Of a stretch of 33,019 nucleotides of DNA, positions 3,043-27,313 are shown in pieces (the stretch's first letter is position 1; each line of letters opens with the position of its first letter). The translations under genes and the position numbers were made by a program. The notes beneath the pieces are model-generated. The model was given only the letters and a program-made list of their open reading frames with translations, did not search any database and had not been told where the DNA came from. Source of the DNA: Pseudoxanthomonas sp. (GTDB lineage Bacteria; Pseudomonadota; Gammaproteobacteria; Xanthomonadales; Xanthomonadaceae); NCBI GenBank assembly GCA_035653955.1, contig DASRYD010000193.1:1-33019 (forward strand). Reading direction: 5' to 3'.

Positions 3043-3153
3043 CGATCGCAAGAATTTCTGGAAGCAGAACATATGCCGCAGGCCTGTTTCGGGCCGCACC
3101 CGTCGCCCACACTCGCCGCATAGAACGGACAGGATTCGAAGGATCAGCCGTCC

Positions 3154-4399: not shown

Positions 4400-5653
4400 T
4401 CAATCGGCAGGATTCGCTTCCGCGGCCGCTTCGTCGCGCGTCTGCCGCGCCACCACGGCGGTCGCGGTCATGTCGCCGGTGACGTTGCCGACCGTGGCCA
4501 GTACGTCGGGGATCGCATCCACCGCCATCAGCACCGCCAGCGGCGCGATCGGCAGGCCCATGGCCTGGCTGACCGGCACATTGGTGGCCAGGAAGATCGC
4601 CTGGCCGGGCAGGCCGACCGAGCCCATGCTGACCAACACCGCAAGCACCACGCCGGTGGCCAGTTGCGCCGGACCCAGTTCGACGCCCATCGCCCAGGCG
4701 ACGAAGCAGGCGGTGGCGAGGTACTGGATCGGCGAGGTGATGCGGAACAGCGATACCGCCATCGGCAGCACCAGCCCGGACACGCGCTGCGAAAAACCGA
4801 GTCGCTGCTGCGCGCTGTCGAGCATCGCCGGCAAGGTCGCCAGCGACGACTGGGTGCTGGCGGCGACCGCCTGCACCGGCACCAGTCCGGCGATGAAGCG
4901 CCCCGGCGACTGGCGGCCGAAGGCCACGCCCACGCCGACCAACAGCACCACGGCCAATGCGTACAACGCGCATTCCAGCGCGATGTAGATGCCCAGGGCC
5001 TGCAGCATGCCCAGTCCCGCGCGCGCGGTGAGCGCCAGCACCAGGGCGAAGATGCCGACCGGCGCCGCCCACAGCACCCAGCGCACGACCACGATCATCG
5101 CGTCGGCGATCGCCTTGAAGAATCCGACTACCTGGGCGCGCGCCGGCGGTTCGAGCCGGGTCAGGGCGAAACCGAAGAACAGGGCGAAGGTCACCAGCGG
5201 CAGCATCGCGCCCGCCGCTGCCGCCGCCACTGCGTTGCTTGGGACGATGGCGATCAGCGCGGAAGCCCAGCCACCATTCGTTGCCTGCACCTCGGCCTCG
5301 TGGCCGCGCAGGGCGGCGGCGACCGCGGGATCCGGCTGCAGCATCGACAGCACCAGCGGCGCCAGCACCGCGGTCATCGCCGCGGCCGCGAACAGCAGCA
5401 CCACGAAGGTGACGATCGCGCGCCGCGCGACGCGCCCGGAATGCGCGGCATCGCTGGTCTGATTGATGCCGACGATCACCAGCGCCAGTACCAGCGGCAC
5501 CACGGTCATCTGCAGGGCATTGAGCCAGAGCTTGCCGAACGGCTCCACGATGTCGGCGACCTGTCCGGCGAACGCAGGATCCATCCATGCCAGCAGGATG
5601 CCGAGGACGATGCCGGCGACCAGGCCGGTCAGTACGCGTGCGGTCTGGCTCAA
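4400..5653 (-). CDS. Dicarboxylate/amino acid:cation symporter (DAACS/SDF family), 417 aa
   Basis: Multiple TM helices, FGKLWLNALQMTVVPLV, HP1 STQSSLATLP and TM8 DAIPD...TVGNVTGD. TTG start at 5653 overlaps the upstream stop (TTGA). Confidence 0.88.
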   Translation of the reverse strand: MSQTARVLTGLVAGIVLGILLAWMDPAFAGQVADIVEPFGKLWLNALQMTVVPLVLALVIVGINQTSDAAHSGRVARRAIVTFVVLLFAAAAMTAVLAPLVLSMLQPDPAVAAALRGHEAEVQATNGGWASALIAIVPSNAVAAAAAGAMLPLVTFALFFGFALTRLEPPARAQVVGFFKAIADAMIVVVRWVLWAAPVGIFALVLALTARAGLGMLQALGIYIALECALYALAVVLLVGVGVAFGRQSPGRFIAGLVPVQAVAASTQSSLATLPAMLDSAQQRLGFSQRVSGLVLPMAVSLFRITSPIQYLATACFVAWAMGVELGPAQLATGVVLAVLVSMGSVGLPGQAIFLATNVPVSQAMGLPIAPLAVLMAVDAIPDVLATVGNVTGDMTATAVVARQTRDEAAAEANPAD

Positions 5654-6426
5654 GGTGCGATCTCCGGCAATTTCCAGTCGTGTGCGAGGCGCGCGTATTC
5701 GGCTCTTGGCAGTTGCACGAACACCGGCCGGCGGCGCGCATCCAGCCAGGCCAGCAGGGCATCCATGCTGGCCGGGGCCATCGCGGTGCAGCCCGACGTG
5801 GTTTCGCCGGGCGCCTTCCACAAGTGCGCGAAGATGCAACTGCCGCCCTGGCGTACCGCGCCATCGGCATTGTGTTCGATCACGAAGCCTTCGCGGTAGC
5901 GCTGGTCGCCGTCGACGTGCAGGTCGCGACGCATCGGCTCGCTGGACTTGTCCAGGCCTGGTGCCTTGACCACGCTGCGGTCGACGATGCGGTTGTAGTA
6001 CGCCGATTCGGGGACGTCGATGCACCAGTCGTTGCCGCCCATCGCCTTGTAGTCGAGCCCGGTGCGGGCGCTTGCGGCATAGCCGAACGCGGGACCGATG
6101 GCGAACACGCCGGCCGGGGACTTGCCGTCGCCTTCGCGCTTCACCGGCCCGTCGTCGCGCGCGGCGTTCAGGCCGATGCCCCATGCGCTGCCGGTGCGGC
6201 CCAGGGTGATCGGCACGGCTGCGCCGACCTGGGTCCAGCCGTCGCCGTCGCGTTCGAAGCGGCGCAATTGGCCATCGGTCGCGTTCCAGTCGGCGCTGGT
6301 CACCAGGACCAGCTGCTGCGCGTTCGACCAGCGTGCGGCTTCTGCGACATCGGCCACGGGCCTGTGCGCGCAGGCGACCAGCAACAATGCGAGCAGGAAA
6401 GGGGCGACACGGCGGATCGGCATCAT
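5650..6426 (-). CDS. YkuD-like L,D-transpeptidase/carboxypeptidase family lipoprotein, 258 aa
   Basis: Signal peptide with lipobox LVAC; KREGDGKSPAG; catalytic region GSCIFAH...TTSGCTAM (His/Cys). Confidence 0.85.
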   Translation of the reverse strand: MMPIRRVAPFLLALLLVACAHRPVADVAEAARWSNAQQLVLVTSADWNATDGQLRRFERDGDGWTQVGAAVPITLGRTGSAWGIGLNAARDDGPVKREGDGKSPAGVFAIGPAFGYAASARTGLDYKAMGGNDWCIDVPESAYYNRIVDRSVVKAPGLDKSSEPMRRDLHVDGDQRYREGFVIEHNADGAVRQGGSCIFAHLWKAPGETTSGCTAMAPASMDALLAWLDARRRPVFVQLPRAEYARLAHDWKLPEIAP

Positions 6427-6486
6427 CGGATTCCGGAGATCGGGGAGAAGCGGGCAGGGCCTTCCTGCATTAAGCCATGGCACCGA

Positions 6487-7332
6487 TCACGACTCCAGCA
6501 GCGGCTGGATGCGTTCCTGGTTTTCCTGCAACCGCGAACGGCGCCCGCCATCGGCTTCGTACAGGCGGATGAACACGCGGTCGAGCAGGTGCTGCAGGGC
6601 CGAGTGATAGAGCAGCGGCTCGATGTGCGGATGCTCGTCGTGCGCGGACACCAACAGGGCCACGTCGGCAAGCGCGCGCAAGGCATTCGAACTGTGGCGG
6701 GTGACGGTGACCACCTTGCCGCGTTGCGAACGCATGTGGCGCGCCAGCTGGCACAGCGCGGGCTGCATGCCGTGCTCGGAAAACACCAGCAACACGTTGT
6801 CGGCCCTGGCCGCAGACAGGCTGGCGGTCATGTGCGCGGCGTCGAAGTTGTGCACGGTGAGGATGCCGAGCTGGGCCAGGCGCAACGCCAGCGCGCGCGC
6901 GTGCAGATCGTCCTCGCCCAGGCCGATGATGAACACCGTGCCCGCGCGACCGATCAGGTCGGCCGCCTGGGTCAGGGTGCCAGGCGGGTTGATCATTCGG
7001 GTGGCTTCCTCGGACTCAGACTTTCGCAACCACAGACTGTGGCCTTGTTCCCTGGTGGCCGGCGCGCCTGCCGGTGGCGCGACCGCACGCCCGCCGTTGT
7101 CGGCGCGGATCACCGCTTCGTTGATCGCCAGCTTGAGGTCGGGATAACCCTTGAAACCCAGCTTCTGGCAGAACTTGACCACGCTCGACTGGCTGATGTC
7201 CAGCGCGTCGGCCAGTTGCTGCGAGGAGTAGTCGCGCAGCAATTGCGCGTTCTCGATGATGAAATCGGCGATACGGCGTTCGATCGCCGACATCCGGTCG
7301 CGTTCGGAGCGGATCTTGACCAGCGCGGTCAT
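6487..7332 (-). CDS. MurR/RpiR family transcriptional regulator (HTH + SIS), 281 aa
   Basis: N-terminal ERRIADFI...SSQQLA...ISQSSVVKFCQKLGFKGYPDLK, followed by a C-terminal SIS fold. ATG at 7332 lies 10 nt after the epimerase stop. Confidence 0.93.
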   Translation of the reverse strand: MTALVKIRSERDRMSAIERRIADFIIENAQLLRDYSSQQLADALDISQSSVVKFCQKLGFKGYPDLKLAINEAVIRADNGGRAVAPPAGAPATREQGHSLWLRKSESEEATRMINPPGTLTQAADLIGRAGTVFIIGLGEDDLHARALALRLAQLGILTVHNFDAAHMTASLSAARADNVLLVFSEHGMQPALCQLARHMRSQRGKVVTVTRHSSNALRALADVALLVSAHDEHPHIEPLLYHSALQHLLDRVFIRLYEADGGRRSRLQENQERIQPLLES

Positions 7333-7342
7333 CGTCGACGCC

Positions 7343-8449
7343 TCAGGCCGCGAGGTCGGCTGCGGGCGCGAGGCCGTCGATGCTACGGATGCCCAGGCCG
7401 GGGGCATCGGTCACGCTGATCTCCGATTCGTTGAACACCACGCCGCTGGTCACCGGATCGAACTGGCACAGCGAAGGCCCGTCCAGGTCGACCTTGCTGA
7501 TCACGTCGGACCGGGCCACCGCCAGGTGCACCGCCGCGGCGACGCCGATGCTGGATTCCAGCATGCAGCCGATCATGCAATCTATGCCGTACAGGCTGCA
7601 GAGGTCGGCGATGCGCACGGCGTTGGAAATGCCGCCGGTCTTCATCAGCTTGATATTGACGATGTCGGCCGCGCGCATGCGGATCAGCTCCACGACTTCG
7701 CGCGGGCCGAACACGCTCTCGTCGGCCATCACCGGGGTGTGCACGCGCTCGGTGACGTAGCGCAGGCCGGCCAGGTCGTGCGCCTTCACCGGTTGTTCGA
7801 CCAGTTCCAGCTTCACCCCGGCGTCTTCCAGCGTGCGCAGCGCGTACACCGCCTGCTTGGCGGTCCAGCCCTGGTTGGCGTCCAGCCGCAACAGCGCGCG
7901 GCCTTCCACCGCGGCGTGGATCGCCTTGGTGCGCTCGATGTCCAGCCCGATGTCCTTGCCGACCTTGATCTTCAGCGATTCGAAGCCGCGTTCCACCGCC
8001 GCCAGCGAGTCGGACACCATCTTGTCGATGTAATCGACGCTGATGGTGATGTCGGTGGTTATGGCGGGGTCGCCGCCGCCCAGCAGCTTGTACAGCGGCG
8101 CGCCGTACAGCTGCCCCCACAGGTCGTACACCGCGATCTCCACCGCCGCCTTCGCGCTGGTGTTCTTCTCCATCGCGGACTGCACCAGCTGGGTGATGCG
8201 GTTGAGGTTGGCGATGTCCTGGCCAATCAGGCGCGGGGCGATGTAGTGGCGCACGGCCTCGACGATCGAGCCGTGGGTGTCGCCGGTGATGACCGCGGTG
8301 GCCGGCGCGCTGCCGTAGCCGACGTGGCCGCTGTCGGTATGCACCATCACCACCACGTCCTCGACCCGGTCCACGGTGCGCAGCGCGGTCTTGAACGGCG
8401 TCTTCAAAGGCACGCGCAGCATGCCGAAACGGATGTCGGTGATCTTCAT
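7343..8449 (-). CDS. ykfB: L-Ala-D/L-Glu dipeptide epimerase (enolase superfamily), 368 aa
   Basis: PFKTALRTV, KIKVG, LDANQG, EQP, ADES, NIKLMKTGG, GCMLES and the dipeptide-epimerase DLDG motif. ATGA overlap with the upstream NlpC/P60 gene (8446-8449). Confidence 0.93.
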   Translation of the reverse strand: MKITDIRFGMLRVPLKTPFKTALRTVDRVEDVVVMVHTDSGHVGYGSAPATAVITGDTHGSIVEAVRHYIAPRLIGQDIANLNRITQLVQSAMEKNTSAKAAVEIAVYDLWGQLYGAPLYKLLGGGDPAITTDITISVDYIDKMVSDSLAAVERGFESLKIKVGKDIGLDIERTKAIHAAVEGRALLRLDANQGWTAKQAVYALRTLEDAGVKLELVEQPVKAHDLAGLRYVTERVHTPVMADESVFGPREVVELIRMRAADIVNIKLMKTGGISNAVRIADLCSLYGIDCMIGCMLESSIGVAAAVHLAVARSDVISKVDLDGPSLCQFDPVTSGVVFNESEISVTDAPGLGIRSIDGLAPAADLAA

Positions 8450-9879
8450 GGAGAGTCCTTGGCCACCCGCACGATGTTGGTGATGCGATCCACGTAGTCG
8501 TTGTCCTTGTTGAAGCGAAGCGGCAGCAACGGCGTGACCGAAACGGCGTTCAAGTGCATCGAACGCATTTCCCCGTCCGCGCCGAGGAAACTGCCGCCAT
8601 TGGTATCGTGAATGACGTAGGGCATGCCGTCGATATCCCCGATGTACATCATTACATGGCCGGGAATGTAGATCAGGTCGCCAACTTCCATTGCCCGCAC
8701 CGCCGCCATGCGCTTGTCGCGGCTGTCGCCGGGCTCGAAATGGGTCCGTGCGAATACCGGGCTGATCGCCTGCGCGCTGGTATTGCGCGGCATCTGCACG
8801 CCCATGCTGCGGTAGACGTCGGAGACGAAACCGCTGCAATCGCGGCCATTGTAGGAATGGCCCCAGCCATAGCGTTCGCCCAGGAACTCGAAGGCCTGGC
8901 GCAGGATGTTGGCGCGGGTCAGCGGCAGATAATCAGCGCTGCTTTCGGCGTTCTTCTGCAACAGGGCAGGCGCGAAGCCGAGGCGGCCGTCGCCGTCGCG
9001 TACCGGCAGGTCGAGGATCCACGAACTGTAAGGGTGCTGGCCGTTGACCGGCTTGTCCGCCGCGGCGTTCGCCAGGGGCACGCGCGTGCCCATGTCCAGT
9101 TGCAGCTCCGAGACGCGCGGCGCCTCGCGGGTGAATACGGTTCGCGGCTTGGCGCCGGTGACGATCCGGTATGGCGCGCGTTGCGCATACGCGAGCACCG
9201 TCGTCCTGTCGCCTTCGGCGATGGCCTTGGCTTCCACCCATGCGGCATAGCGTGGGCTGACCACGAACAACCACTGTCCATCGTCACTGGTGTGCGCGAT
9301 GACGACCGGATCGCCGGGGAACAGCGTGCTTTCCTGGAAGCGATCGATGTCGGTATCGTCGTCGCGGCTGAACACGCGCAGTAGGGTGGGGAACGTGCGC
9401 AGCGCGGCGCGTTCGACGGCCATGCCGTAGCGCGACGTTTGGTTTGCGGGGATGGCGTCCATGGCACGGTTGGCGACGATGGCATCCAGCGTCGCCTTGG
9501 GTACCGGTTTGCCGGCTTCATCCCACAACGGTTTCGTGGGGGGCGAGGCCAGTCCGTCGATCCAACCGGCGACCTGCGTGCGCGTCAGTGTCGCGGGCAG
9601 GCCCGACAGGTCGTGCATCGAAGGGTCGTCATGCAACAGTCGCGCGTTGCGGGCGTCGATGGCGGCGCGCGGCATCAGGACCGTGTCCGGCGCGGACAGC
9701 CGTTTTATCCAGAATTCGGGCGCAAGGTAGGCATCGGCAACGCCTACGACACCGCTTTCGGGCACCGGCAACGCGGCGGCGGCCTGCCGGTCGCCGGCGG
9801 CCGCGGTCGCGACGGTCAGAACAAACCCCAGCAGGACCACGGCGGGAAGCCTCGGTCGCAAGTAGCGCATGGCGCTCAT
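8446..9879 (-). CDS. Exported SH3-domain NlpC/P60 gamma-D-glutamyl-diamino acid endopeptidase (YkfC-like), 477 aa
   Basis: RBS AAGGAGAGGG before ATG 9879; signal peptide; SH3b-like middle region (LRTFPT, DRFQES); C-terminal YGWG...DCSGF...PRNT...GDLIYIPGHV...IH catalytic triad. Confidence 0.9.
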   Translation of the reverse strand: MSAMRYLRPRLPAVVLLGFVLTVATAAAGDRQAAAALPVPESGVVGVADAYLAPEFWIKRLSAPDTVLMPRAAIDARNARLLHDDPSMHDLSGLPATLTRTQVAGWIDGLASPPTKPLWDEAGKPVPKATLDAIVANRAMDAIPANQTSRYGMAVERAALRTFPTLLRVFSRDDDTDIDRFQESTLFPGDPVVIAHTSDDGQWLFVVSPRYAAWVEAKAIAEGDRTTVLAYAQRAPYRIVTGAKPRTVFTREAPRVSELQLDMGTRVPLANAAADKPVNGQHPYSSWILDLPVRDGDGRLGFAPALLQKNAESSADYLPLTRANILRQAFEFLGERYGWGHSYNGRDCSGFVSDVYRSMGVQMPRNTSAQAISPVFARTHFEPGDSRDKRMAAVRAMEVGDLIYIPGHVMMYIGDIDGMPYVIHDTNGGSFLGADGEMRSMHLNAVSVTPLLPLRFNKDNDYVDRITNIVRVAKDSP

Positions 9880-9951
9880 TCCCTCTCCTTTTTTCCCCAG
9901 CTTGCCACCTGTGACGGCGCCGGCGCTGGCAGTGCGATTTGTGCGATGCGG

Positions 9952-10022
9952 AATACGTAATTCGTATTTGTTATACGTCAAGAATAAATTATTGACCAGT
10001 CCTGACCGTCGTGTTACACAGC
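9952..10022. promoter_or_regulatory. Divergent promoter/operator region
   Basis: AT-rich island with the inverted repeats AATACG-N5-CGTATT (9952-9968) and GTCAAgAATaaATTaTTGAC (9977-9996). On the + strand TTGACC-N17-TACACA (9992-10020); on the - strand TTGACG at 9976-9981. Confidence 0.6.
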
Positions 10023-10107
10023 CGAAGTCAACGCGGGCGCAGGCCGTCGGGCCGCACGCCTCCACGTCACGAACGAATCCAATGTCGGTCATCACCGGGG
10101 AGTGGTT

Positions 10108-13100
10108 ATGAGCAATGCACGCCGTTTGCGCAAGTCCGTACTCAACGTCGCCCTGGGCCTGTGCCTGACCTCGCTGGCCGCGCCTGGATTCGCCCAGGCC
10201 GTCACCGGTGCGGTAGCCGGCCGCGCCAATGCCGGCGACACGATCACCGTCACCAACGCCGCGACCGGCCAGAACCGCGTGGTCACGGTCGGCAAAGACG
10301 GCAGTTACCGCATCGCGCAATTGCCGCCGGGCGACTACACGTTGACCGCCGGCAACGGCAAGCCGATCGCGGTCAGCGTTTCGCTGGGCGGCACCACCAC
10401 GGTCAATCTGAGCGCCGAAGGCAGCGTCGCCAACCTGGATGCGATACAGGTGGTCGGCTCGCGCGTGGTCAACCGCGTGGACGTGCGCAGCACCGAAACC
10501 GCGACCAACGTGACCCGCGAAGAATGGGCGCGACTGCCGGTGGACCAGAGCCTGGGCGCGGTCGCGTTGATGGCGCCTGGCGTGGTGGGGTCGGGCGCGA
10601 CCTTCGGCGGCCTTACCTTCGGCGGCTCGTCGGTGGCGGAGAACGCCGTGTACATCAACGGCTTGAACGTGACCGATCCGTACCGTCGCCAGGGCTTCTC
10701 GTCGGTGCCGTTCGCTTTCTACAAGGAAGTCCAGGTCAAGACCGGCGGCTATTCCGCCGAATTCGGCCGCAGCACCGGCGGCGTCATCAACGCGGTGACG
10801 CGCTCGGGCGGCAACGAATTCCACGGCGGCGTCGAAGTGACGCTGGAACCGGCGGATTGGGCGGCCGACAAGAAGGACCATTTCCACACCGACGGCACCA
10901 TCGACGAGCGCGACCGCACCAGCCGGGACAAGAGCCCCCTGTACAAGACCAACGTGTGGGCGTCGGGCCCGATCGTGAAGGACAGGCTGTTCTTCTTCGC
11001 GATGTACGAAAAGCGCGACAACGATTCGAAGGACTTCGATACCAACGACGCCTTCATCACCGAGGGCGACAACGACTTTTGGGGCACCAAGCTTGATTGG
11101 AACATCACCGACAACCACAAGTTGGAGCTGTTGGCCTTCTCCGACAAGACAAAATCGACCACCGACATCTACGAGTACACATGGGACACGGGCAGCAAGG
11201 ACAGGCTGAAGGGCGACAGCGTTTCGGAATCCGGCGGCGATAACTGGTCGGCTACGTATACCGGACGATTCGGCGACAACTTCGTTGCCAAGGCGATGTA
11301 CGGCGTGAACAAGCGCCGGGCCGCCAACAGCAGCAACCAGGATCCGGATTGCAGCATCATCACCCGTTCGGGCGATTACACCGAGGCTTTCGGCGAAGAG
11401 ACAACGCCGGAAGGATGCCACCCGACCGACACCGGCATTGGCGATCGCAACGACAAGCGCGAGGCGGCGCGACTGGACTTCGAGTGGACGTTGGGCGATC
11501 ACCTGCTGCGCTTTGGCGTGGATCAGGAAATCATGGATTCCAACAGCGCGGTGCGGTATCCGCACGACGGCGTGAGCTACCAGGTGCAGTCCGCCACGCC
11601 GGGTGACGAGTTGCCCAACGGAGCCATAATTCCCGATGGCGTGACCGCGATCATCGATGCGCGCCATTACGTCACGGGTACGCCTGTCACGACCAAGGCG
11701 CAGGCGTTCTACCTGGAAGACAACTGGAGCGTAACCCCTAACCTGTTGCTGAGCCTGGGCGTGCGCGCCGATATGTTCCACAACAAGTACGCGTCGGGCG
11801 TGACCTTCGCCAAGGCCGATTTCAAGGACATGATCTCGCCGCGCGTCGGCTTCAGCTGGGACATGAAGGGCGACGGTACCACCAAGTTGTTCGGCAACGC
11901 AGGCCGATATTACCTGCCGCTGACCAACAAACTCGCCGACTATTTCGCCGGCAGCACTGACGAGCATACCTATTACGTGCTCGATGGCTGGACCCAAATG
12001 CAGCACCCCGTGGCAGGCGACTATCTCCTGCCGGACGTGGGCGAACAACTTGGACCGGTCGATACGACCAACAACGTGCCGGCGCCAGAGGATTTCCGCA
12101 CCGCGGTCGCGCGCGATCTGAAGATGGTCTACCAGGACGAGTACATTCTCGGCTTCCAGCAGGCGATCAATCAGGAATGGTCGTACGGGGTCAACGCCAC
12201 TTACCGGAAGGTGACCCGTGCCGTGGAGGATGTGCGCACCAACCACGTCGAAGGGTGCGATTGGTATTCCGGAGATTGGCCAATCCTCAACCCGGGTGAA
12301 ACGAACACCCTGTGGTGCCCGGATACCAACAGCTGGGTGACTTTCGACAACTCCGAGGATGGCTACAAGGCGACCGGCAGCGGCGCCATCATGGGCTACA
12401 AAAAGCCGCGGCGCACCTACAAGGCGGTCGAATTCCAGGTCGACCGCGCATGGGACGACAAGTGGGCGTTCAACGCCAGCTACATCTGGTCCAAGAGCGA
12501 GGGCAACATCGAAGGTCCGGTGAACTCGGATACCGGTTACGCCGATACCAACCTGGTGCAGTATTACGACCATCCGGCGGTCAACGAACGCTACGGCGTG
12601 CTGTTCAACGACTTCCGCCACCAGATCAAGCTGCGGGGCAGCTACAAGCTCAACGAGATGTGGAGTTTTGGCGCCACCCTTTCCGCGCGCTCTGGCGGGC
12701 CGATCACTGCCTTTGGCGTGCGCTGGCCCAATGACAACCGCAGCGCGGGCGGTCCGGGTGAGTTCAGCGGTGGCGGTTCGGGCTGGCTATGCGTGGATAA
12801 ATGCGTCGATCCTCAGGACGGCACGCCGTGGAGCTACGCGGATCGCGTATTCAAGTACAGCCCGCGCGGGGCATTCGGTCGCATGCCGTGGGTCACCAAC
12901 CTGGGACTCAGCGCGACCTGGACCTTGCCGGTGGAGGGAGTGGACCTGAAGGCCCGTTTCGCGGTGTATAACCTGCTCAACAGGCAGGTGAAGGTCAATG
13001 TGCACTCGCGCTACGAAAGCACGCCGGGAGCGCAAATGCCCTATTTCGGCGAAGGCACGGTCTGGCAATCGCCGCGTTACATGAACCTGGTCGTGAGCTG

Positions 13101-13110
13101 GAATTTCTGA
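10108..13110 (+). CDS. TonB-dependent receptor, Oar-like with N-terminal carboxypeptidase-regulatory-like domain, 1000 aa
   Basis: GGGGAG RBS; signal peptide; DGSYRIAQLPPGDYTL; plug motifs ENAVYINGLNVT and TGGYSAEFGRSTGGVINAVTRSG; SPRVGFSWD; C-terminal Phe. Confidence 0.95.
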   Translation: MSNARRLRKSVLNVALGLCLTSLAAPGFAQAVTGAVAGRANAGDTITVTNAATGQNRVVTVGKDGSYRIAQLPPGDYTLTAGNGKPIAVSVSLGGTTTVNLSAEGSVANLDAIQVVGSRVVNRVDVRSTETATNVTREEWARLPVDQSLGAVALMAPGVVGSGATFGGLTFGGSSVAENAVYINGLNVTDPYRRQGFSSVPFAFYKEVQVKTGGYSAEFGRSTGGVINAVTRSGGNEFHGGVEVTLEPADWAADKKDHFHTDGTIDERDRTSRDKSPLYKTNVWASGPIVKDRLFFFAMYEKRDNDSKDFDTNDAFITEGDNDFWGTKLDWNITDNHKLELLAFSDKTKSTTDIYEYTWDTGSKDRLKGDSVSESGGDNWSATYTGRFGDNFVAKAMYGVNKRRAANSSNQDPDCSIITRSGDYTEAFGEETTPEGCHPTDTGIGDRNDKREAARLDFEWTLGDHLLRFGVDQEIMDSNSAVRYPHDGVSYQVQSATPGDELPNGAIIPDGVTAIIDARHYVTGTPVTTKAQAFYLEDNWSVTPNLLLSLGVRADMFHNKYASGVTFAKADFKDMISPRVGFSWDMKGDGTTKLFGNAGRYYLPLTNKLADYFAGSTDEHTYYVLDGWTQMQHPVAGDYLLPDVGEQLGPVDTTNNVPAPEDFRTAVARDLKMVYQDEYILGFQQAINQEWSYGVNATYRKVTRAVEDVRTNHVEGCDWYSGDWPILNPGETNTLWCPDTNSWVTFDNSEDGYKATGSGAIMGYKKPRRTYKAVEFQVDRAWDDKWAFNASYIWSKSEGNIEGPVNSDTGYADTNLVQYYDHPAVNERYGVLFNDFRHQIKLRGSYKLNEMWSFGATLSARSGGPITAFGVRWPNDNRSAGGPGEFSGGGSGWLCVDKCVDPQDGTPWSYADRVFKYSPRGAFGRMPWVTNLGLSATWTLPVEGVDLKARFAVYNLLNRQVKVNVHSRYESTPGAQMPYFGEGTVWQSPRYMNLVVSWNF

Positions 13111-13122
13111 GTTCCATGGCCG

Positions 13123-13158
13123 GCCGGAGCCGCCGTTCGGGTGGACGGCGGCTTCGGC
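13123..13158 (+). terminator. 16-bp GC-rich stem-loop after TBDR1 (mRNA stabiliser or partial terminator)
   Basis: GCCGGAGCCGCCGTTC-gggt-GGACGGCGGCTTCGGC with two G-U pairs. No U-tract. Confidence 0.55.
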
Positions 13159-13193
13159 ATGCCGCAGACGTATCCGTAACGTAGGACGAACAC

Positions 13194-13955
13194 TTGCGTA
13201 TTGCATTGCGCTGGTTGCCGATATCGCTGCTGGCGTTGCTGCTGACGTCATGCGCCACCGGACACAACCCGCTGGCCAAGTGGGAGCGTTCGCGCAACTT
13301 CAACGAACGCCAGCCGGTCCTGGTCGTCCTGCACTACACCACCGAAGAATCGTCGGAAAAGAGCCTGCACACGCTGAAGACCGCCAACAGCAAGGGGCCG
13401 GTCGGCGTGCATTACCTGGTGGGCCGCGACGGCAGGTTGTTCCAGCTGGTCAAGGACGGCAAGCGCGCCTGGCATGCGGGTGGCGGACGCTGGGGCACCA
13501 TCGCCGACGTCAATTCCGCATCCATCGGCATCGAGCTGGACAATAGCGGCCACGATCCGTTTCCGGACGCGCAGATCGACAAGCTGATCGTGTTGTTGAA
13601 CGATCTGACCCGACGCTTGGCCATTCCGCGACAGCGAGTCATCGGTCATGAGGACATGGCCCCCGGGCGCAAGATCGATCCGGGTCCGTTGTTCCCGTGG
13701 AAACGCCTGCACGAAGCCGGCTTCGGCCTGTGGCCCGATCCGGAGGCCGGAGATCCGCCGCCGGGTTTCGACGGTTGGCTGGCGATGGCGGCGGTGGGCT
13801 ATCCGCTGGACGATCCCGAAGGTGCGTTGCGCTCCTTCCGCCATCATTTCCGCGGCATCGAGAGCCAGGGCGTCGAGTTCGAAGCTCAGGATCTGCGTAT
13901 CCTGTATGCGCTGACACGGCCGCTGGTGGCGCAACTGCCCGCGAAATCGCAATAG
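13194..13955 (+). CDS. N-acetylmuramoyl-L-alanine amidase (Amidase_2, AmiD-like lipoprotein), copy 1
   Basis: TTG start; lipobox LTSC; LHYT, AWHAG, NSASIGIELDN and IGHEDMAPGRKIDPG (Zn ligands His/His/Asp plus catalytic Glu). Confidence 0.92.
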   Translation: MRIALRWLPISLLALLLTSCATGHNPLAKWERSRNFNERQPVLVVLHYTTEESSEKSLHTLKTANSKGPVGVHYLVGRDGRLFQLVKDGKRAWHAGGGRWGTIADVNSASIGIELDNSGHDPFPDAQIDKLIVLLNDLTRRLAIPRQRVIGHEDMAPGRKIDPGPLFPWKRLHEAGFGLWPDPEAGDPPPGFDGWLAMAAVGYPLDDPEGALRSFRHHFRGIESQGVEFEAQDLRILYALTRPLVAQLPAKSQ

Positions 13956-13993
13956 CCGTTCCGGGAACGGAGCGGACGGACGGAGGGGAAATA

Positions 13994-15577
13994 ATGAAGT
14001 GTTTGGCCGTGGCGCTGCTGGTGCTTTTCGCCGGATTCCCCCGCCTGGCCCACGCGGCGGGCGCGGGTCCCGACCCGCAGGCCATCGACGCTGCGGTACG
14101 CGCCACCATCGAGCGTTACCGGCTGCCCGGCATCGCGGTCGGCGTGATCGAGGAGGGCAAGGTGACGTTCGCGCGCGGCTACGGCGAAACCGTGTACGGC
14201 AGCGGCGACCCGGTCACGACGAAGACGTTGTTCAAGATCGCCTCCAACAGCAAGGCGATGACCGCTGCCGTGCTGGCGCGGCTGGTGCAGCAAGGCAAGT
14301 TGCGCTGGGACGATCCGGTGGTGAAGCATCTGCCGGGATTCGCCATGCACGATCCGTGGGTCACTCGGCACATGACGGTCAGCGACCTGCTGGTGCACAA
14401 CAGCGGCCTGCCCGAGGGCGGCGGCGACCTGATGCTGTGGCCGGAGCCGAACCTGTTCACCCGCGACGACATCGTCAACGGATTGCGTCATATCAAGCCG
14501 GCCTACGGCTTCCGCGCTGGCTACGCTTACGACAACCTGCTGTACGTGGTGGCAGGGCAGGTGGCTGCGGCGGCGGGAGGCGCGTCCTACGAAGAACTGC
14601 TGCGGCGCGAAGTGTTCGAACCGTTGGCGCTGGATGGCTGCCGGGCTGGAGAGTTCCGACTGGCCGACGCGGGCAGTGTGGCGCAGCCGCATTCCCGCGA
14701 TGGCGACCAGGTAATCCGTACCCGCGGCGACGCCGAACTGGTGCCGGAAATCGCTTCCGCACCGGCGGGAGGCATCCGCTGTTCGCTCGACGACATGCTC
14801 GTCTGGGCGCGCAACTGGGTGGTGCCTACCGACGCGCAGAAACAATGGCTGGGCGATGCGCAGCGCGCGGACATGTGGAAGGCGCGCACGCCGATGCCGA
14901 TTTCGCAGCGGCAGAAGCGCTGGGACGGCACCCACTACTACGCATACGCCTATGGCTTTCGCCTGGCCGATGTCGACGGCGAGTGGACGGTGTCGCATAC
15001 CGGCACGCTCGGCGGCATGTATTCGATGATGATGTTGCTGCCGGATCGCAAATCCGGTTTCGTATTCATGATAAACGGCGAAGGGGGCAGCGCCCGGACT
15101 GTTCTGGGCGAGGTATTGCTCAAGCTGTTCACCGCGCCCGAGATTTCGCTGGGCGTGCGGGGATATGCCGAGGACTTGGCTAAACCGGTTGAGCCGACTG
15201 CTGCGGCAAAGCGCAGGTTGCCCGACATCGCCAAGCGCAAACCCGTCGTCGCCGACGCGATGCGCGACTGGCTGGGCACCTGGCGCGACCCGTGGTTCGG
15301 CGAGGTGCGTATCTGCGCGGTCGGCAAGGAAGTGGAGTGGCGTTCGTTGAAGTCGCCGAAGATGCATGGGCGGATAGGGAAGCTGGGCGGACGCTACCTG
15401 CTGGTCTGGGACGACGAAGCCGTCGACGAGAATGCCTGGCTGGACTTCGCCAGGCAGGGCGGCGCGCACACGTTGCGCATGGCCAAGTTCGATCCGCAGG
15501 GCGACTTCAGCTCGGACTACGAAGACCTCGCCCTCGCTCGCGTTGGCGATTGCCCAACGACGACGCCAGAGCCATAG
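13994..15577 (+). CDS. Exported serine hydrolase (beta-lactamase class C / DD-peptidase superfamily) with C-terminal beta domain, 527 aa
   Basis: GGAGGGG RBS before ATG 13994; signal peptide; SxxK (IASNSK), YxN (YDN) and HTG motifs. Confidence 0.9.
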   Translation: MKCLAVALLVLFAGFPRLAHAAGAGPDPQAIDAAVRATIERYRLPGIAVGVIEEGKVTFARGYGETVYGSGDPVTTKTLFKIASNSKAMTAAVLARLVQQGKLRWDDPVVKHLPGFAMHDPWVTRHMTVSDLLVHNSGLPEGGGDLMLWPEPNLFTRDDIVNGLRHIKPAYGFRAGYAYDNLLYVVAGQVAAAAGGASYEELLRREVFEPLALDGCRAGEFRLADAGSVAQPHSRDGDQVIRTRGDAELVPEIASAPAGGIRCSLDDMLVWARNWVVPTDAQKQWLGDAQRADMWKARTPMPISQRQKRWDGTHYYAYAYGFRLADVDGEWTVSHTGTLGGMYSMMMLLPDRKSGFVFMINGEGGSARTVLGEVLLKLFTAPEISLGVRGYAEDLAKPVEPTAAAKRRLPDIAKRKPVVADAMRDWLGTWRDPWFGEVRICAVGKEVEWRSLKSPKMHGRIGKLGGRYLLVWDDEAVDENAWLDFARQGGAHTLRMAKFDPQGDFSSDYEDLALARVGDCPTTTPEP

Positions 15578-15679
15578 CAAAGGTGTCCGTTTTTTCCCCC
15601 GTTTACGTGCATCGATATGCGTCACGGCGCGCAAGGCCGATCGGATTGGCAAGCGGATGCCGCGAGGTACCAAAGGCCG

Positions 15680-15719
15680 TTGACGCTTTTGTGAATACCG
15701 TGTTAAACAGCAAATAACA
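15680..15719 (+). promoter_or_regulatory. Putative sigma70 promoter/operator of TBDR2
   Basis: TTGACG at 15680 followed by TGtTAAACA at 15701-15709; inverted repeat TGTTA-N9-TAACA (15701-15719). Confidence 0.5.
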
Positions 15720-15890
15720 TCGCGCTGCCGCAGCTGCACGCCACGCCATGGGGATACCGGCTCCAGAACCATCCCGATGGCTTCGTGCGCGAACGGGGGA
15801 AATCGGTCGCGCGTATGGCCACGGGCAAGGGAAGGCCGCCGTTTCGCGCCCGTCTGCTCTGCTCCATTGTCCATTTCGTCCGGAGACAAC

Positions 15891-18779
15891 ATGCGAACCC
15901 ACCCGAATTTCCGACTGAACCTCCTCTGCGCGGCAGTGCTGGCCGCGATGGCCGTGCCTGCCCTGGCGCAGGACGCCGGCCAGTCCTCCCAGCCGTCTTC
16001 GGCGACGAACCTCGACAAGATCACTGTCACCGGTTCGCGCATCAAGCGTACCGACATCGAAGCGGCGCTGCCGGTGACCATCATCCAGAAGGCCGAAATC
16101 GAGGCGCAAGGCATCACCTCGGCCGAGCAATTGCTGCAGCAGTTGAACGTCGCCAGCAATGGCCCGGATAGCTTGGCCGCGAATAGCGGCATCGCGCCTC
16201 CGGGCACCCGCGGCAACAACGGCGTATCCGGCGCCAACCTGCGCGGGCAGGGCGCCGACGCGACTCTGGTCCTGCTCAACGGCCGCCGCGTCGCCACGCA
16301 CGGCCTGGCCGGTCAGGTGGTGGATCTGAACTCCATACCGTTCCAGGCGGTCGAGCGCGTCGAGGTATTGCGCGACGGTGCTTCCGCGGTCTACGGCACC
16401 GACGCCATTGGTGGCGTGATCAATTTCATCACCAAGACCGACTACCAGGGCCTGTCGCTCACTGCAGGCGCGGACGTGACCCAGGAAGGCGGCGGCAATA
16501 TCTACAACGCCAGCATGCTGGGCGGCTTCGGCGACCTGGACACCGATCGCTGGAACGTATGGATCGCGGCGACCGCGAAGAAGAACGATATCCTGCGCGG
16601 CAACCAGCGCGACTTCGCCAACAGCTTCCAGGCAGACCGCGGCCTGGCGCCGGATACGCGCGGCACCCCGTTTGCCACCCTGGTCACCGGTACCGGCTCG
16701 CTGATTGGCAGCGGCTTGAGGGATCCGGCCACCAACCTCACCAAGACTTCGATCAACACTCTCGACTTGCCTGCGGGCGCCGGCTGCGAAAACGGCGGCG
16801 ACATGATGGGCCCCTACGGCGACCAGATCTGGGCCAGCCCCGGCGCGAGTTTCGCGTGCGCCTGGGACTACGGCCGCGCCCGCACCATCCAGCAGCCGGT
16901 GCAGACCCTGCAGGCCATCGGTCGCGCCACCTTCAAGATCGGCGACAACCACGAATTCTTCGCTGAGATAATGGGCTCCAAAGTCACCTCGAAGCGACAG
17001 TTCGAAGCTCAGCAACTCACCACTTCGATCGCTTCGTTGGCCAGCAACCCCGCGATTGCGCTGGACGCTTACGAGTTGAACGCGAACACCAAGGCAACCT
17101 ACGACTCGGTATACAACGCGCTTCATGATTATTTCGGCGATCAAGCTAATCTCGTCTACGGCAATCCGATCAACTATCGGTGGCGTTGCGAAATTTGTGG
17201 CCCGCGCCAACTGGAAACTACCACCAGTTCCTATCGCGTCCTGTTCGGCTTGAACGGCACCATCGGCACCTGGGACTACAGCACCGGCTTGTCGCGTGCG
17301 GAGAGCCGCGCGCAATCGGTGTTGGCCGGCGGTTACTACTACACGCCGCAGTTGAAGGCGCTGCTGAAGAACGGCGTGCTCAATCCGTTCCTGATGCCAG
17401 GCCAGAGCCAATCGCAGGCGGCCTACGACGGCATGGCCGCGGCCGACGCCAGCGGTCTGGAGCTGTACCACGGCGTGTCCGCCATGACCACGCTGGACGC
17501 GAGCTTCAGCGGCAGTCTCGGCTTCAAGCTGTGGGGCGAGGACGATGTGCAGGCCGCGGTCGGCATGGATCTGCGCCGCGAAGAGTACGAATTCGGCGGT
17601 CCGGCCGAATGGTCGCAGGGCAACGCCTACATATTCGGGGCGCCGGGCGATGCGGCCAATTACATGCCGAAAAAAGAGCGCGACGTGAAGGCCGTGTTCG
17701 TCGAGTTCAACGTGCCGGTCTTCAAGGGCTTCGACCTGAACCTGGCCGGGCGTCGCGACGAATACGACGGCTTCGGCAGCAGCACCAATCCGAAGTATTC
17801 GTTCAAGTACCGTCCGGCCGACTGGCTGGCCTTCCGCGGTTCGTACAGCACCGGCTTCAAGGTGCCCGATTTCGCCAAGCTGTTCCGCGGCGTCACCGCA
17901 ACCCTGTACACCGGCCTGGACCTGGCCGATCCGGCGATCTGCCCGAATGGCAGGTACAACCCGGATGTCGCCAACTGCAATGTGCAGATCCGTCCGGACA
18001 TCATCACCGGCGGGAACCCGAACCTGGACCCGGAAGAGGCCAAGCAGAAGAGCATCGGTTTCGTGCTGGCTCCGACCAGCAATTTCAACATCAGCGTCGA
18101 CTGGTGGGAAATCGAGCGCATCAACACGATCCGCGGCGGCTTCAGCCTGGAGACGATGCGAACGAACTACGCCAAGTACGCGGAAAACTTCCTCCGCGAC
18201 GGCAGCGGCGAGATCGTGGGCATCGACCAGCGCTACATCAACACCGGCGGCACCCTGACCCGTGGCATCGAGGTGGACTCCAACCTGAGCGGCGAACTTG
18301 CCGGTGGCGACTGGAACATCCACCTCAACGGCAACTATCTGGACACCTTCAAGACCAAGAGCTTCACCATCGACCCCTACAGCGACAACCTGGTAGGCAT
18401 GTACGAGCGTTACTTCAACCTGCCGATCAAGTGGAAGCACACCCTGAGCTTCGGCTGGCACAAGGGCGACTGGGCCCACACGCTGACCCAGATCTACCGC
18501 GGCGGGTACAAGGATTACCAGCCCGGCGGCATCGTCAACGGCTACCGTCCACCGAACTGGAATCCCGACGTGGACGAGTACATCACCTACAACTACAGCG
18601 TCAGCTGGACGGGCATCAAGAACCTGAAGGCGACCTTCGGCGTGCGCAACCTGCTGAACACCGACCCGCCGTTCACCCTGCGCTACCTGGACGACGGCGA
18701 TGGCGCCGGCTGGGAAGCGCGCGTCGCCGATCCGCGCGGCCGTTCGTTCAACATGCTGCTCGAATACAGTTTCGAATGA
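15891..18779 (+). CDS. TonB-dependent receptor, 962 aa
   Basis: GGAG RBS before ATG 15891; signal peptide; TonB-box-like LDKITVTGSRI; plug motifs NLRG...TLVLLNGRR and VERVEVLRDGASAVYGTDAIGGVINFIT; GGNPNLDPEE; GVRNLLN. Confidence 0.95.
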   Translation: MRTHPNFRLNLLCAAVLAAMAVPALAQDAGQSSQPSSATNLDKITVTGSRIKRTDIEAALPVTIIQKAEIEAQGITSAEQLLQQLNVASNGPDSLAANSGIAPPGTRGNNGVSGANLRGQGADATLVLLNGRRVATHGLAGQVVDLNSIPFQAVERVEVLRDGASAVYGTDAIGGVINFITKTDYQGLSLTAGADVTQEGGGNIYNASMLGGFGDLDTDRWNVWIAATAKKNDILRGNQRDFANSFQADRGLAPDTRGTPFATLVTGTGSLIGSGLRDPATNLTKTSINTLDLPAGAGCENGGDMMGPYGDQIWASPGASFACAWDYGRARTIQQPVQTLQAIGRATFKIGDNHEFFAEIMGSKVTSKRQFEAQQLTTSIASLASNPAIALDAYELNANTKATYDSVYNALHDYFGDQANLVYGNPINYRWRCEICGPRQLETTTSSYRVLFGLNGTIGTWDYSTGLSRAESRAQSVLAGGYYYTPQLKALLKNGVLNPFLMPGQSQSQAAYDGMAAADASGLELYHGVSAMTTLDASFSGSLGFKLWGEDDVQAAVGMDLRREEYEFGGPAEWSQGNAYIFGAPGDAANYMPKKERDVKAVFVEFNVPVFKGFDLNLAGRRDEYDGFGSSTNPKYSFKYRPADWLAFRGSYSTGFKVPDFAKLFRGVTATLYTGLDLADPAICPNGRYNPDVANCNVQIRPDIITGGNPNLDPEEAKQKSIGFVLAPTSNFNISVDWWEIERINTIRGGFSLETMRTNYAKYAENFLRDGSGEIVGIDQRYINTGGTLTRGIEVDSNLSGELAGGDWNIHLNGNYLDTFKTKSFTIDPYSDNLVGMYERYFNLPIKWKHTLSFGWHKGDWAHTLTQIYRGGYKDYQPGGIVNGYRPPNWNPDVDEYITYNYSVSWTGIKNLKATFGVRNLLNTDPPFTLRYLDDGDGAGWEARVADPRGRSFNMLLEYSFE

Positions 18780-18813
18780 CGCGGCCATAGGCCCGATCGG
18801 GCTTTTGGCCTTG

Positions 18814-18839
18814 CGCCGCCGGGCAACCGGCGGCGTTTT
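18814..18839 (+). terminator. Intrinsic terminator after TBDR2
   Basis: CGCCGCCGG-GCAA-CCGGCGGCG-TTTT, preceded by a second small hairpin (about 18783-18810). Confidence 0.75.
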
Positions 18840-18879
18840 CATTTACGCTCCCGGCAGTGCTCCCCGTTGCGGAATATCC

Positions 18880-19623
18880 ATGATGAAGATGCCTTCGAGA
18901 CTTCTGATCCTGGCGGCGCTCTCCTGCCTTCTCGCCGCTTGCGCGCATGCGCCGCGCAATCCGCTGGCGACCTGGGTGCCCTCGAAGAACTACGACGAGC
19001 GCCGCGCCAACCTGATCGTGCTGCACTTCACCGAAGAGGATTCGGTCGAGCAGAGCCTGCATACCCTGCGCACGCGCAACAGCAAGGGACCGGTCAGCGC
19101 GCATTACCTGCTCGGTCGCGACGGCCATATCTACCAATTGGTCAGCGACCGGGACCGCGCCTGGCAGGCAGGGGCGGGAAGCTGGGGCACGATCACCGAA
19201 CTCAATTCGGCCTCGATCGGCATCGAGATCGACAACGACGGCCACAGCCCGTTCCCTCCGCAGCAGATTGACAGCCTGCTGGTGCTGCTCGACGATCTGT
19301 GCAAGCGCCTGCGGATCCCGCGCCAGTCGATCATCGGCCACCAGGATCTGGCGCCGACGCGCAAGCCCGATCCGGGTCCGCTGTTCCCGTGGAAGCGACT
19401 GGCCGAAGCCGGCTTCGGCCGCTGGCCGGACAACACCGACCAGATGCCCCCGCCGAACTTCGATCCATGGTTGGCGCTGCGCCTGGTCGGCTATTCGCTC
19501 GACGACCGCGCCGCCACCGTACGCGCCTACCGCAACCACTTCCGCGGCGACAGCGCCACCGATCTCGATGAGCAGGACAGCCGCATTCTGTATGCGCTGA
19601 CCCGTGCCGACTGGGCGCGATAG
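18880..19623 (+). CDS. N-acetylmuramoyl-L-alanine amidase (Amidase_2 lipoprotein), copy 2, about 247 aa
   Basis: Lipobox LAAC; LHFT, VSAHY, NSASIGIEIDN and IGHQDLAPTRKPDPG. The start could be 18880, 18883 or 18889. Confidence 0.92.
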   Translation: MMKMPSRLLILAALSCLLAACAHAPRNPLATWVPSKNYDERRANLIVLHFTEEDSVEQSLHTLRTRNSKGPVSAHYLLGRDGHIYQLVSDRDRAWQAGAGSWGTITELNSASIGIEIDNDGHSPFPPQQIDSLLVLLDDLCKRLRIPRQSIIGHQDLAPTRKPDPGPLFPWKRLAEAGFGRWPDNTDQMPPPNFDPWLALRLVGYSLDDRAATVRAYRNHFRGDSATDLDEQDSRILYALTRADWAR

Positions 19624-19667: not shown

Positions 19668-19754
19668 GCCCGGGTGGCGAAACTGGTAGACGCAAGGGAC
19701 TTAAAATCCCTCGCCCGAAAGGGAGTGTGGGTTCGATTCCCACCCCGGGCACCA
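19668..19754 (+). tRNA. tRNA-Leu (anticodon TAA)
   Basis: Acceptor stem GCCCGGG/CCCGGGC-ACCA; D-loop AACTGGTAGA; anticodon arm AGGGA-CTTAAAA-TCCCT; long variable arm; GTTCGATTC T-loop; encoded CCA. Confidence 0.97.
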
Positions 19755-21470: not shown

Positions 21471-21545
21471 GGGCGGTTAGCTCAGCGGTAGAGCACTGCT
21501 TTCACACGGCAGGGGTCACAAGTTCGAAACTTGTACCGCCCACCA
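21471..21545 (+). tRNA. tRNA-Val (anticodon CAC)
   Basis: GGGCGGT/ACCGCCC-ACCA acceptor; TAGCTCAGCGGTAGAGC D-arm; CTGCT-TTCACAC-GGCAG anticodon arm; GTTCGAAAC T-loop. Confidence 0.97.
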
Positions 21546-24252: not shown

Positions 24253-24398
24253 GGATGCTCCTGTCTAATCGCGCTTGCAACGCCTCGCGCACGCGCAGTC
24301 GGCGTAGTGCATTGCAGCAATGAATTGCCTGGGCGGATACGTAACCGCATGAAATGCAATATCGCCGCGGCGCCGCGGGCAACTAATTAAGTTTTCGT

Positions 24399-24438
24399 TT
24401 GACAAGTCCAAGTAGACGCAGGTATGACAGCGCTGTCA
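24399..24438 (+). promoter_or_regulatory. sigma70 promoter overlapped by a LacI-family operator
   Basis: TTGACA (24399-24404)-N18-TATGAC (24423-24428). Perfect palindrome TGACAGCGCTGTCA at 24425-24438 with the central CG typical of LacI sites. Confidence 0.8.
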
Positions 24439-24458
24439 ACTTCGACGGGAGAGGGGCG

Positions 24459-27251: not shown

Positions 27252-27269
27252 CCGCTGTACAGCAAACTG

Positions 27270-27313
27270 GCCCGCGGCGGCGGAAGTATCCACTTCCGCT
27301 TTCCGCGGGCTTT
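27270..27313 (+). terminator. Stem-loop after TBDR3
   Basis: GCCCGCGG-cg-GCGGAAGT-atcc-ACTTCCGC-ttt-CCGCGGGC-TTT. Confidence 0.6.

Follow-up and report, generated by a model that had tools for sequence, protein, structure and literature searches.

The DNA analysed here is a 33,019-nucleotide stretch of a Pseudoxanthomonas sp. genome (the window; contig C193 of the 68%-complete genome G000). At positions 4400-19623 it carries ten contiguous genes in two divergent arms, whose products could together take up and break down peptide fragments of peptidoglycan. A preliminary description of this DNA had proposed this arrangement and the protein families involved, and both were confirmed by the coordinates and by Pfam searches. 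The locus comprises the following features.

4400-5653, minus strand: SDF/DAACS-family inner-membrane symporter (PF00375, E 3e-80)
5650-6426, minus strand: YkuD-fold lipoprotein, predicted L,D-carboxypeptidase (PF03734 and fold model)
6487-7332, minus strand: RpiR-family regulator with an acidic SIS pocket, predicted repressor (HTH_6 and SIS domains)
7343-8449, minus strand: cytoplasmic MR_MLE dipeptide epimerase, likely L-Ala-D/L-Glu epimerase (match to 1jpm)
8446-9879, minus strand: exported DvLysin-family SH3_6 and NLPC_P60 protein, predicted gamma-D-Glu-meso-diaminopimelate (mDAP) peptidase, called SH3-NlpC below (match to 3m1u)
9949-9996, no strand assigned: two operator-like boxes, GAAT-N5-ATT(C/G) (motif search)
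10108-13110, plus strand: TBDR1, an Oar-like TonB-dependent receptor (TBDR; CarboxypepD_reg, Plug and barrel)
13194-13955, plus strand: Amidase_2 lipoprotein 1, AmpDh2/AmiD-like (PF01510, E 4e-33)
13994-15577, plus strand: exported two-domain serine hydrolase, Beta-lactamase family with a C-terminal beta domain (SxxK, YxN and HTG motifs; fold model)
15891-18779, plus strand: TBDR2, a classical TonB-dependent receptor (Plug and barrel)
18880-19623, plus strand: Amidase_2 lipoprotein 2 (PF01510, E 9e-34)

Overlapping stop and start codons, previously ascribed to the left arm as a whole, occur at two of its four junctions (ATGA, 8446-8449; TTGA, 5650-5653), the other two being gaps of 10 bp (epimerase/RpiR) and about 60 bp (RpiR/YkuD). 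The right end of the locus is bounded by a tRNA-Leu gene (19668-19754). Judged by eye and hydropathy, the YkuD protein and both amidases have lipoboxes, SH3-NlpC and the serine hydrolase have signals of the cleavable type, and the epimerase and RpiR have no export signal. All five enzyme types retain intact, conserved catalytic residues. The nearest named relative by SH3-NlpC protein, Pseudoxanthomonas helianthi (89%), carries the same ten genes in the same order with 86-98% identity (L048), and the core of the locus recurs across the family, so that the layout is not a matter of chance.

The family was surveyed in a single draw of 200 scored genomes, searched with the SH3-NlpC, TBDR1, RpiR and TBDR2 proteins. 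Among the genomes counted are G000 and two that are marked unpublished (G210 and G236, the latter without an RpiR match); a miss means that a gene was not found with the given query. Gene neighbourhoods were counted in the 106 loci of at least 19 kb among 135 examined; a few genomes occur twice and flanks are limited, so these counts are floors. Since the genomes are related and some loci appear twice, all counts overstate independence. SH3-NlpC matched 130 of the 200 genomes, in 48 of 64 genera, while TBDR1 matched 84, RpiR 87 and TBDR2 22. Across the phylum, SH3-NlpC matched 14 of 401 genomes drawn, and all TBDR1 matches better than 1e-200 lay within the order of the window.

TBDR1 is dedicated to this locus. 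SH3-NlpC was present in 83 of the 84 TBDR1 genomes and lay within 8 kb of the receptor in 80; the linkage of receptors to peptidase genes, named beforehand as one of the points on which the proposal could fail, is thus conserved for TBDR1. Two of the four exceptions were inspected: L207 keeps the operator boxes before the receptor, and L208, a 9-kb contig, has the serine hydrolase, an amidase and an M15 peptidase alongside. The other two (G109 and G132) come from fragmented genomes. TBDR1 has a TonB-box-like NLDAIQV and a C-terminal Phe, and a sequence search of the PDB returned no solved relative. In a 59-sequence FastTree phylogeny, for which about a quarter of 107 Xanthomonadales receptors plus that of the window were sampled, 28 Xanthomonadales receptors grouped with three locus-linked receptors from another order in a single clade (local support 1.0) that excluded 20 unlinked Oar-like receptors. 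Eight further locus-linked Oar-like receptors made up a second clade, placed elsewhere in the tree on a long branch. The receptor slot is occupied by several lineages, namely TBDR1, this second clade, a type with 26% identity and TBDR2, which stands in place of TBDR1 in 6 of the 20 loci of the genus. Such variety is what selection by a common imported substrate would produce; TBDR1 is predicted to be an importer of wall peptides. The TBDR1 copies that fill this slot (L028-L047 and the family loci) fall into three identity classes (about 45, 58 and 75%), all of which occur in the window's genus; this suggests that alleles are exchanged, the drive coming from substrate range or from phages or bacteriocins.

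The receptor is also coupled to the regulator. RpiR and TBDR1 were both found in 80 of the 200 family genomes and both missed in 109, with TBDR1 alone in four and RpiR alone in seven. A motif search of 79 divergent regions found the box GAATAAATTATTG in 77, compared with 0.0 in 100 shuffles; L114, one of the two regions without it, also has no RpiR. In the window, box 1 (9951-9963) and box 2 (9982-9994) are 31 bp apart, and box 1 lies upstream of box 2 in 71 of the 77 regions, with the same 31-bp spacing in 68 of these 71. Box 2 overlaps the predicted -35 element of TBDR1 (TTGACC, 9992-9997), which precedes by 17 bp the TACACA of a predicted extended -10 (TGtTACACA, 10012-10020); this promoter was absent from the output of a strict simple sigma-70 scan. 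Searched in five genomes, the operator pattern gave one site in four and two in the fifth, with 0 in the control; the second site, in G060, is beside unrelated small open reading frames (ORFs). When the window's own genome was scanned with the matrix, a single strong site (C96:2603, score 23.8) came up outside the locus; it lies between a gene for a secreted protease-like protein and one for a flavin adenine dinucleotide (FAD) oxidoreductase. We do not claim it as a regulon member, the oxidoreductase being only 29% identical to the locus-type D-amino-acid oxidoreductase.

Inspection by eye of 34 loci across genera found RpiR, box and receptor together in 23, none of them in ten reduced loci, and the receptor alone in one. 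Because the three elements co-occur, RpiR would be expected to bind the boxes. A search for RpiR in five reduced-locus genomes was empty, this search being run without a positive control. Two reduced loci without RpiR (L129 and L211) have a distant receptor (26%) and an amidase, and in L129 a gene with peptidoglycan-binding and XVIPCD secretion-effector domains is inserted before the M15 gene. The SIS loops of the regulator read GLGEDD and FSEHG, compared with GTGSS and FSLSG in solved phosphosugar-binding RpiRs, whose Ser-rich loops bind phosphate. These phosphate-binding loops of MurR-type regulators are not present in the locus RpiR, the MurR model scores 79 bits against a cut-off of 408, and the acidic residues D141, D164 and E186 are found in 108 of 108 sequences. 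Since invariant acidic residues replace the serines of the pocket, the inducer is likely not a phosphosugar. RpiR is predicted to repress the locus. Collectively, these data show that the locus is real, conserved and co-regulated.

The predicted specificity of the peptidase agrees with a peptide-feeding role. The best solved match of SH3-NlpC is DvLysin (3m1u, E 5.5e-26), with YkfC reaching only E 3.8e-05, and Cys348, His408 and His424 are conserved in 132 of 132 sequences. In a low-identity, locally gap-free alignment, Tyr211 occupies the position of DvLysin Ala211 in 132 of 132 sequences and in all 24 scored from another order; PnpA has Thr at this position. Xu et al. 2015 (PMC4600125) report that the DvLysin mutant A211Y lost activity on sacculi and fell from 5400 to 60 on MurNAc-tetrapeptide (MurNAc, N-acetylmuramic acid), whereas with free tetrapeptide 4900 of 6100 remained. 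Given Tyr211 and this mutant, SH3-NlpC is predicted to work downstream of an amidase, cutting free stem peptides only and leaving the wall untouched.

Other products of the locus would provide the flanking steps. The epimerase matches the solved L-Ala-D/L-Glu epimerase 1jpm best (E 7.5e-102; next 3.5e-81) and scores below the cut-offs of the NCBIfam epimerase models. R24, T135, K160, K162 and the metal ligands, which we take to include the substrate residues, are conserved in 122 of 122 sequences and D321/D323 in 119 of 122; the enzyme is likely cytoplasmic and likely acts on L-Ala-D/L-Glu. In the YkuD lipoprotein, His201 is kept in 105 and Cys213 in 106 of 106 sequences. A sequence search of the PDB gave no match for it, and its model (predicted local distance difference test, pLDDT, 90.5) is closest to Pgp2 (Z 12.8, root-mean-square deviation 2.6, 137 aligned), Csd6 (12.3) and Bd1075 (11.1), all of them L,D-carboxypeptidases. 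Transpeptidases reach Z 10.3 or less, a small margin, and a fold by itself does not establish function; the protein is predicted to be an L,D-carboxypeptidase that would convert tetrapeptide to tripeptide and D-Ala. Amidase 1 has AmpDh2 as its best solved match (E 1e-34), keeps the zinc and catalytic positions in 23-24 of 24 sequences, and is predicted to free stem peptides from MurNAc; amidase 2 is 63% identical to it and is separated from TBDR2 by a terminator-like hairpin (18813-18836).

The serine hydrolase keeps SxxK, YxN and HTG in 95 of 95 sequences. Its D,D specificity, assumed in the preliminary description, is not borne out by the model (pLDDT 94.2), whose closest folds, at about 20% identity, are Pab87 (2qmi), IS11, the Lip3 DL-peptidase, SurE and D-aminopeptidase, a mixture of D-aminopeptidase, DL-peptidase, esterase and D,D-peptidase; the AmpH model gives 82 bits against a cut-off of 266. 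By its fold it may be a D-stereospecific peptidase or amidase. In the DAACS symporter, the Arg of the DMART motif of aspartate transporters is replaced by Ala in 53 of the 54 orthologues parsed (of 76), and the NMDGT motif reads FRITS. Since this arginine is missing, the cargo is probably not Glu or Asp. The symporter is predicted to bring in L-Ala-D-Glu or a released amino acid, either mDAP or Ala.

Gene content across the family points to the same substrate. Among the 106 long loci, the epimerase was present in 101, TBDR1 or TBDR2 in 95, RpiR in 94, the serine hydrolase in 93 and YkuD in 92, followed by a transglutaminase-like exported protein (72), an M15 D-Ala-D-Ala dipeptidase (71), DAACS (70), diaminopimelate decarboxylase (LysA, 40), DUF819 (30), an APC permease (22), a D-amino-acid oxidoreductase-like protein (17) and an M19 dipeptidase (9). 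A DAACS, APC or DUF819 transporter was found in 95; DAACS occurred in 38 of the 40 LysA-bearing loci and was nearly mutually exclusive with the APC permease. The locus LysA is stand-alone and above the lysA cut-off. Four of four genomes checked have another, weaker match as well, in a long frame that we infer to be a fused kinase-decarboxylase; the locus gene is thus a second copy, which suggests mDAP as a product. The transglutaminase-like protein (about 510 aa; L028:11211-12740 and 71 other long loci) stands first in the receptor arm, never occurs without TBDR1 (72 of 72) and is a candidate cross-link or isopeptide hydrolase; it is not in the window. Two recurrent ORFs, U13 and U16, had no Pfam match, look like shadow frames opposite this gene and were set aside.

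In a low-GC family of another order, whose gene content is alteromonad-like, SH3-NlpC matches were found in 32 of 121 genomes. The 24 loci examined outside the window's order, 23 of them from this family and one from another, included a TBDR of three linked types in 13, NamZ, MurK or MurQ in nine, and both in two. In L153, receptor, amidase-hydrolase fusion, RpiR, epimerase, peptidase and M15 stand together with a D-amino-acid-transaminase-like gene, NamZ, a kinase-MurQ fusion and GH3, and in L186 the layout of the window recurs with receptors of both types. Next to NamZ/MurK/MurQ, L177 (17673-19901) and L180 (1-2247) encode an FAD-linked oxidase with 4Fe-4S domains; presumably it is of the D-lactate dehydrogenase type and would consume lactate from MurQ. 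The LysA, M15 and MurQ/NamZ neighbours and Tyr211 all point to the stem peptide, as had been proposed, and the substrate is very likely a peptidoglycan peptide.

We therefore consider that the locus is probably an inducible system for feeding on peptidoglycan peptides, with TBDR1 importing them from outside. Stem peptides or small muropeptides would cross the outer membrane through TBDR1, a role suggested by its linkage and co-regulation, and the amidase lipoproteins, by family and residues, would take off MurNAc. The YkuD lipoprotein may then remove D-Ala from tetrapeptides, with an exported M15 D-Ala-D-Ala dipeptidase added in relatives. SH3-NlpC would cut the gamma-D-Glu-mDAP bond only once L-Ala is unblocked, so that the intact wall is spared. 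The products would enter the cytoplasm via DAACS, or via APC, DUF819 or NhaC in relatives, where the epimerase would yield L-Ala-L-Glu; in relatives, the locus LysA could convert mDAP to lysine, with D-Ala going to a D-amino-acid oxidoreductase or transaminase. RpiR would act at the two boxes over the divergent promoters and be released by a peptide-type rather than a phosphosugar ligand. L-Ala-D-Glu, once split off and epimerised, is not reusable by Mpl, so that the route is catabolic. The fragments most likely come from the debris of other cells; peptides shed by the cell itself are a probable further source.

Several observations weigh against this reading, the first group of which concerns TBDR2. 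The linkage to the peptidase is looser for this receptor: ten of its 22 orthologues are in the locus, ten are near gcvP, one is on a short contig, and one (L196, in G167) is displaced, with an operator-like box, an alanine racemase and an M15 dipeptidase. SH3-NlpC was not matched in six of the 22 TBDR2 genomes, a quick tree places the copies of the window and P. helianthi together as sister to two gcvP-linked ones, no operator was found upstream of the window's TBDR2 (best score -0.1), and only 15 of the 106 long loci contain it. TBDR2 is thus a mobile accessory member and not dedicated to the locus. Its position near gcvP, a glycine-cleavage gene, in 10 of 13 neighbourhoods inspected (L194, L195, L198-L205) may hint at uptake of Gly-containing peptides; an idea that it is a cyanophycin-type receptor was dropped when the neighbours turned out to be gcvP.

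The amidases are likewise loosely linked: Amidase_2 genes, earlier listed among the members, occur in only 24 of the 106 long loci and are accessory. Because most loci lack them, the serine hydrolase could itself be the amidase, or an amidase could be encoded elsewhere, as was seen in the two genomes checked. The window's locus contains no glycan-cutting enzyme or surface binding protein. In SH3-NlpC, the Asp of the recycling-type Tyr/Asp pair is Asn366 (132 of 132) and DvLysin Trp411 is not conserved; the low identity of the alignment that places Tyr211 belongs here too. Finally, 47 of the 130 SH3-NlpC genomes have no TBDR1, and 40 of those 47 have no RpiR either, which means that the peptidase core is useful without the receptor.

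These 40 genomes and the ten reduced loci are what an alternative would predict in which the locus salvages the cell's own wall, as a ykf-like branch beside AmpG/Mpl for periplasmic disposal of turnover peptides, with a receptor that recaptures shed peptides or serves another role. The earlier step from an outer-membrane importer to foreign wall goes too far, since recapture of own shed peptides needs an importer as well and those 47 genomes keep the peptidase without TBDR1. Own-wall M2N/U2N occur in the periplasm of Stenotrophomonas maltophilia, which accumulates anhydromuropeptides with dipeptide stems from its own wall, cut at the gamma-D-Glu bond with the sugar still on (PMC13436218), and a periplasmic amidase-YkfC-epimerase recycling route has been proposed in Bacteroides (PMC4600125). 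On the other hand, the peptidase was not found in 70 of the 200 family genomes, which speaks against a general wall function, and epimerisation and the extra LysA destroy the peptide rather than reuse it. The tightly linked receptor, the shared operator and the three sequence classes fit a variable outside source better. The recycling genes mpl and ampG were above cut-off in five of five genomes and anmK in four, all away from the locus, which contains none of them. This argues for a separate catabolic route and is no proof that the substrate is foreign. Overall, we regard own-wall salvage as unlikely, yet as the main alternative.

It is improbable that peptidoglycan is incidental and that the system serves to break down other compounds of D-amino-acid or isopeptide type, such as peptide antibiotics, poly-gamma-glutamate pieces or Gly-rich peptides. 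The SurE-, ClbP- and D-aminopeptidase-like fold of the serine hydrolase, the M19 dipeptidase in 9 of 106 loci and the gcvP-linked TBDR2 of 10 of 22 genomes would suit such a role, but Amidase_2, YkuD, the DvLysin-type NlpC, the Ala-Glu epimerase, M15 and LysA fit successive bonds or residues of the mDAP stem, and MurQ/NamZ are neighbours in the other order. That TBDR1 exports the locus enzymes for digestion of wall outside, as Oar, to which it is similar, is needed for secretion of the protease PopC in Myxococcus (PMC6434023), and as the secreted DvLysin relative PnpA attacks competitors' walls (PMC7860986), is very improbable, given that the classical TBDR2 substitutes for it in those 6 of 20 genus loci, three locus enzymes are lipoproteins, and the lysis-blocking Tyr replaces the Thr of PnpA and the Ala of DvLysin.

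The favoured reading, import and catabolism of wall peptides, can be set beside several known systems. Carbohydrate utilization loci containing TonB-dependent receptors (CUT loci) and polysaccharide utilization loci (PULs) are defined by a receptor, degradative enzymes, a transporter and a regulator in one locus. Transporter and regulator are present here, and receptor-enzyme linkage is found for TBDR1 (80 of 84 within 8 kb) and less firmly for TBDR2 (10 of 22). The same combination characterises Xanthomonas CUT loci and Bacteroidota PULs (PMC1790865); the present locus differs in having peptidases instead of glycoside hydrolases, none of which is among the ten genes, sugar genes joining only in the other order, and no SusD-like gene. 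As in the Bacillus ykfABC(D) operon in its B. cereus form, an NlpC/P60 gamma-D-Glu-diamino-acid peptidase is next to a cytoplasmic L-Ala-D-Glu epimerase, here of YkfB type as in the ykfABCD pathway, the peptide being cut outside the cytoplasm and the dipeptide imported (PMC2954226). Unlike ykf, the locus has a DvLysin-type four-domain peptidase rather than YkfC, a YkuD enzyme rather than YkfA, DAACS/APC/DUF819 rather than Dpp/Opp, and in addition an outer-membrane receptor and an RpiR operator; neither a YkfA carboxypeptidase nor a Dpp/Opp ABC importer was found among the ten genes or the recurrent annotated neighbours. The locus thus works like a CUT locus or PUL built on ykf-type chemistry and is a member of neither.

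The BT1087-BT1314-BT1313-BT1086 route of Bacteroides thetaiotaomicron also combines a periplasmic amidase, D-Ala trimming, gamma-D-Glu-mDAP cleavage and an epimerase, but it was proposed as own-wall recycling, with other amidase and permease families and no receptor in the description consulted (PMC4600125). SH3-NlpC shares its SH3b-NlpC/P60 family and the motifs YGWG, RDCS, PRN and GH with the lysins DvLysin, PnpA and EcgA (PMC4600125, PMC7860986), but where DvLysin has Ala211 it naturally carries Tyr, the residue whose introduction made DvLysin a free-peptide enzyme. The AmpG-NagZ-AmpD-Mpl pathway of Stenotrophomonas and other proteobacteria likewise acts on peptidoglycan turnover products (PMC13436218, PMC13046382), but its genes lie elsewhere in the same genomes and reuse the intact tripeptide, which the locus breaks down. 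In the open-access literature searched (main texts, without supplements or subscription papers), neither this locus nor a TonB-dependent receptor for wall peptides is described, in keeping with the earlier statement that no characterised system with this layout is known. The words peptidoglycan, murein, epimerase and RpiR are absent from the main text consulted of the CUT-locus paper (PMC1790865), as are the locus terms from that of a Lysobacter predation paper (PMC12510463). XCC3806 appears in a single paper of those searched, as a DvLysin orthologue (PMC4600125), and Rhodanobacter dssB, reported as monocistronic (PMC11928319), can be set beside the locus by description only.

Directly to the left of the locus (29-4350) are genes for a cytochrome c-domain protein, a GH127-like hydrolase and a coenzyme A (CoA)-transferase III; among the 106 long loci only that of P. 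helianthi is flanked by GH127 and CoA-transferase. To the right, tRNA-Leu(TAA) (19668-19754) and tRNA-Val(CAC) (21471-21545) bracket a flavin mononucleotide (FMN)-binding glutamate-synthase-family gene, and the region 22789-32615 (GH30, TBDR, GH3, MFS sugar permease and LysR) resembles an ordinary carbohydrate CUT locus, its TBDR being of the Xanthomonas/Caulobacter type (TIGR01782 above cut-off).

A broader proposal can be made only tentatively, and we give it a little less than an even chance: TBDR1 would represent the first clade of TonB-dependent transporters for stem peptides and the entry point of a regulon for feeding on foreign walls across Xanthomonadales and alteromonad-like gammaproteobacteria, with an RpiR subfamily sensing a D-amino-acid peptide instead of a phosphosugar and three receptor classes matching different wall chemistries. 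Microbial necromass includes a large pool of peptidoglycan, and the passage of wall peptides across the outer membrane in Gram-negative decomposers and predators is undescribed in the literature searched. With a named receptor, an enzyme set and a regulator whose operator is precise, the locus makes this question directly testable, and it is found in culturable genera (Pseudoxanthomonas, Lysobacter, Luteimonas, Thermomonas and Stenotrophomonas). SH3-NlpC would be a natural counterpart of the engineered DvLysin A211Y, and the locus offers candidates for the yet unnamed periplasmic peptidase and amidase of S. maltophilia (PMC13436218). Its genes may also serve as a set of markers by which the turnover of wall peptides can be followed in soil and sea metagenomes.

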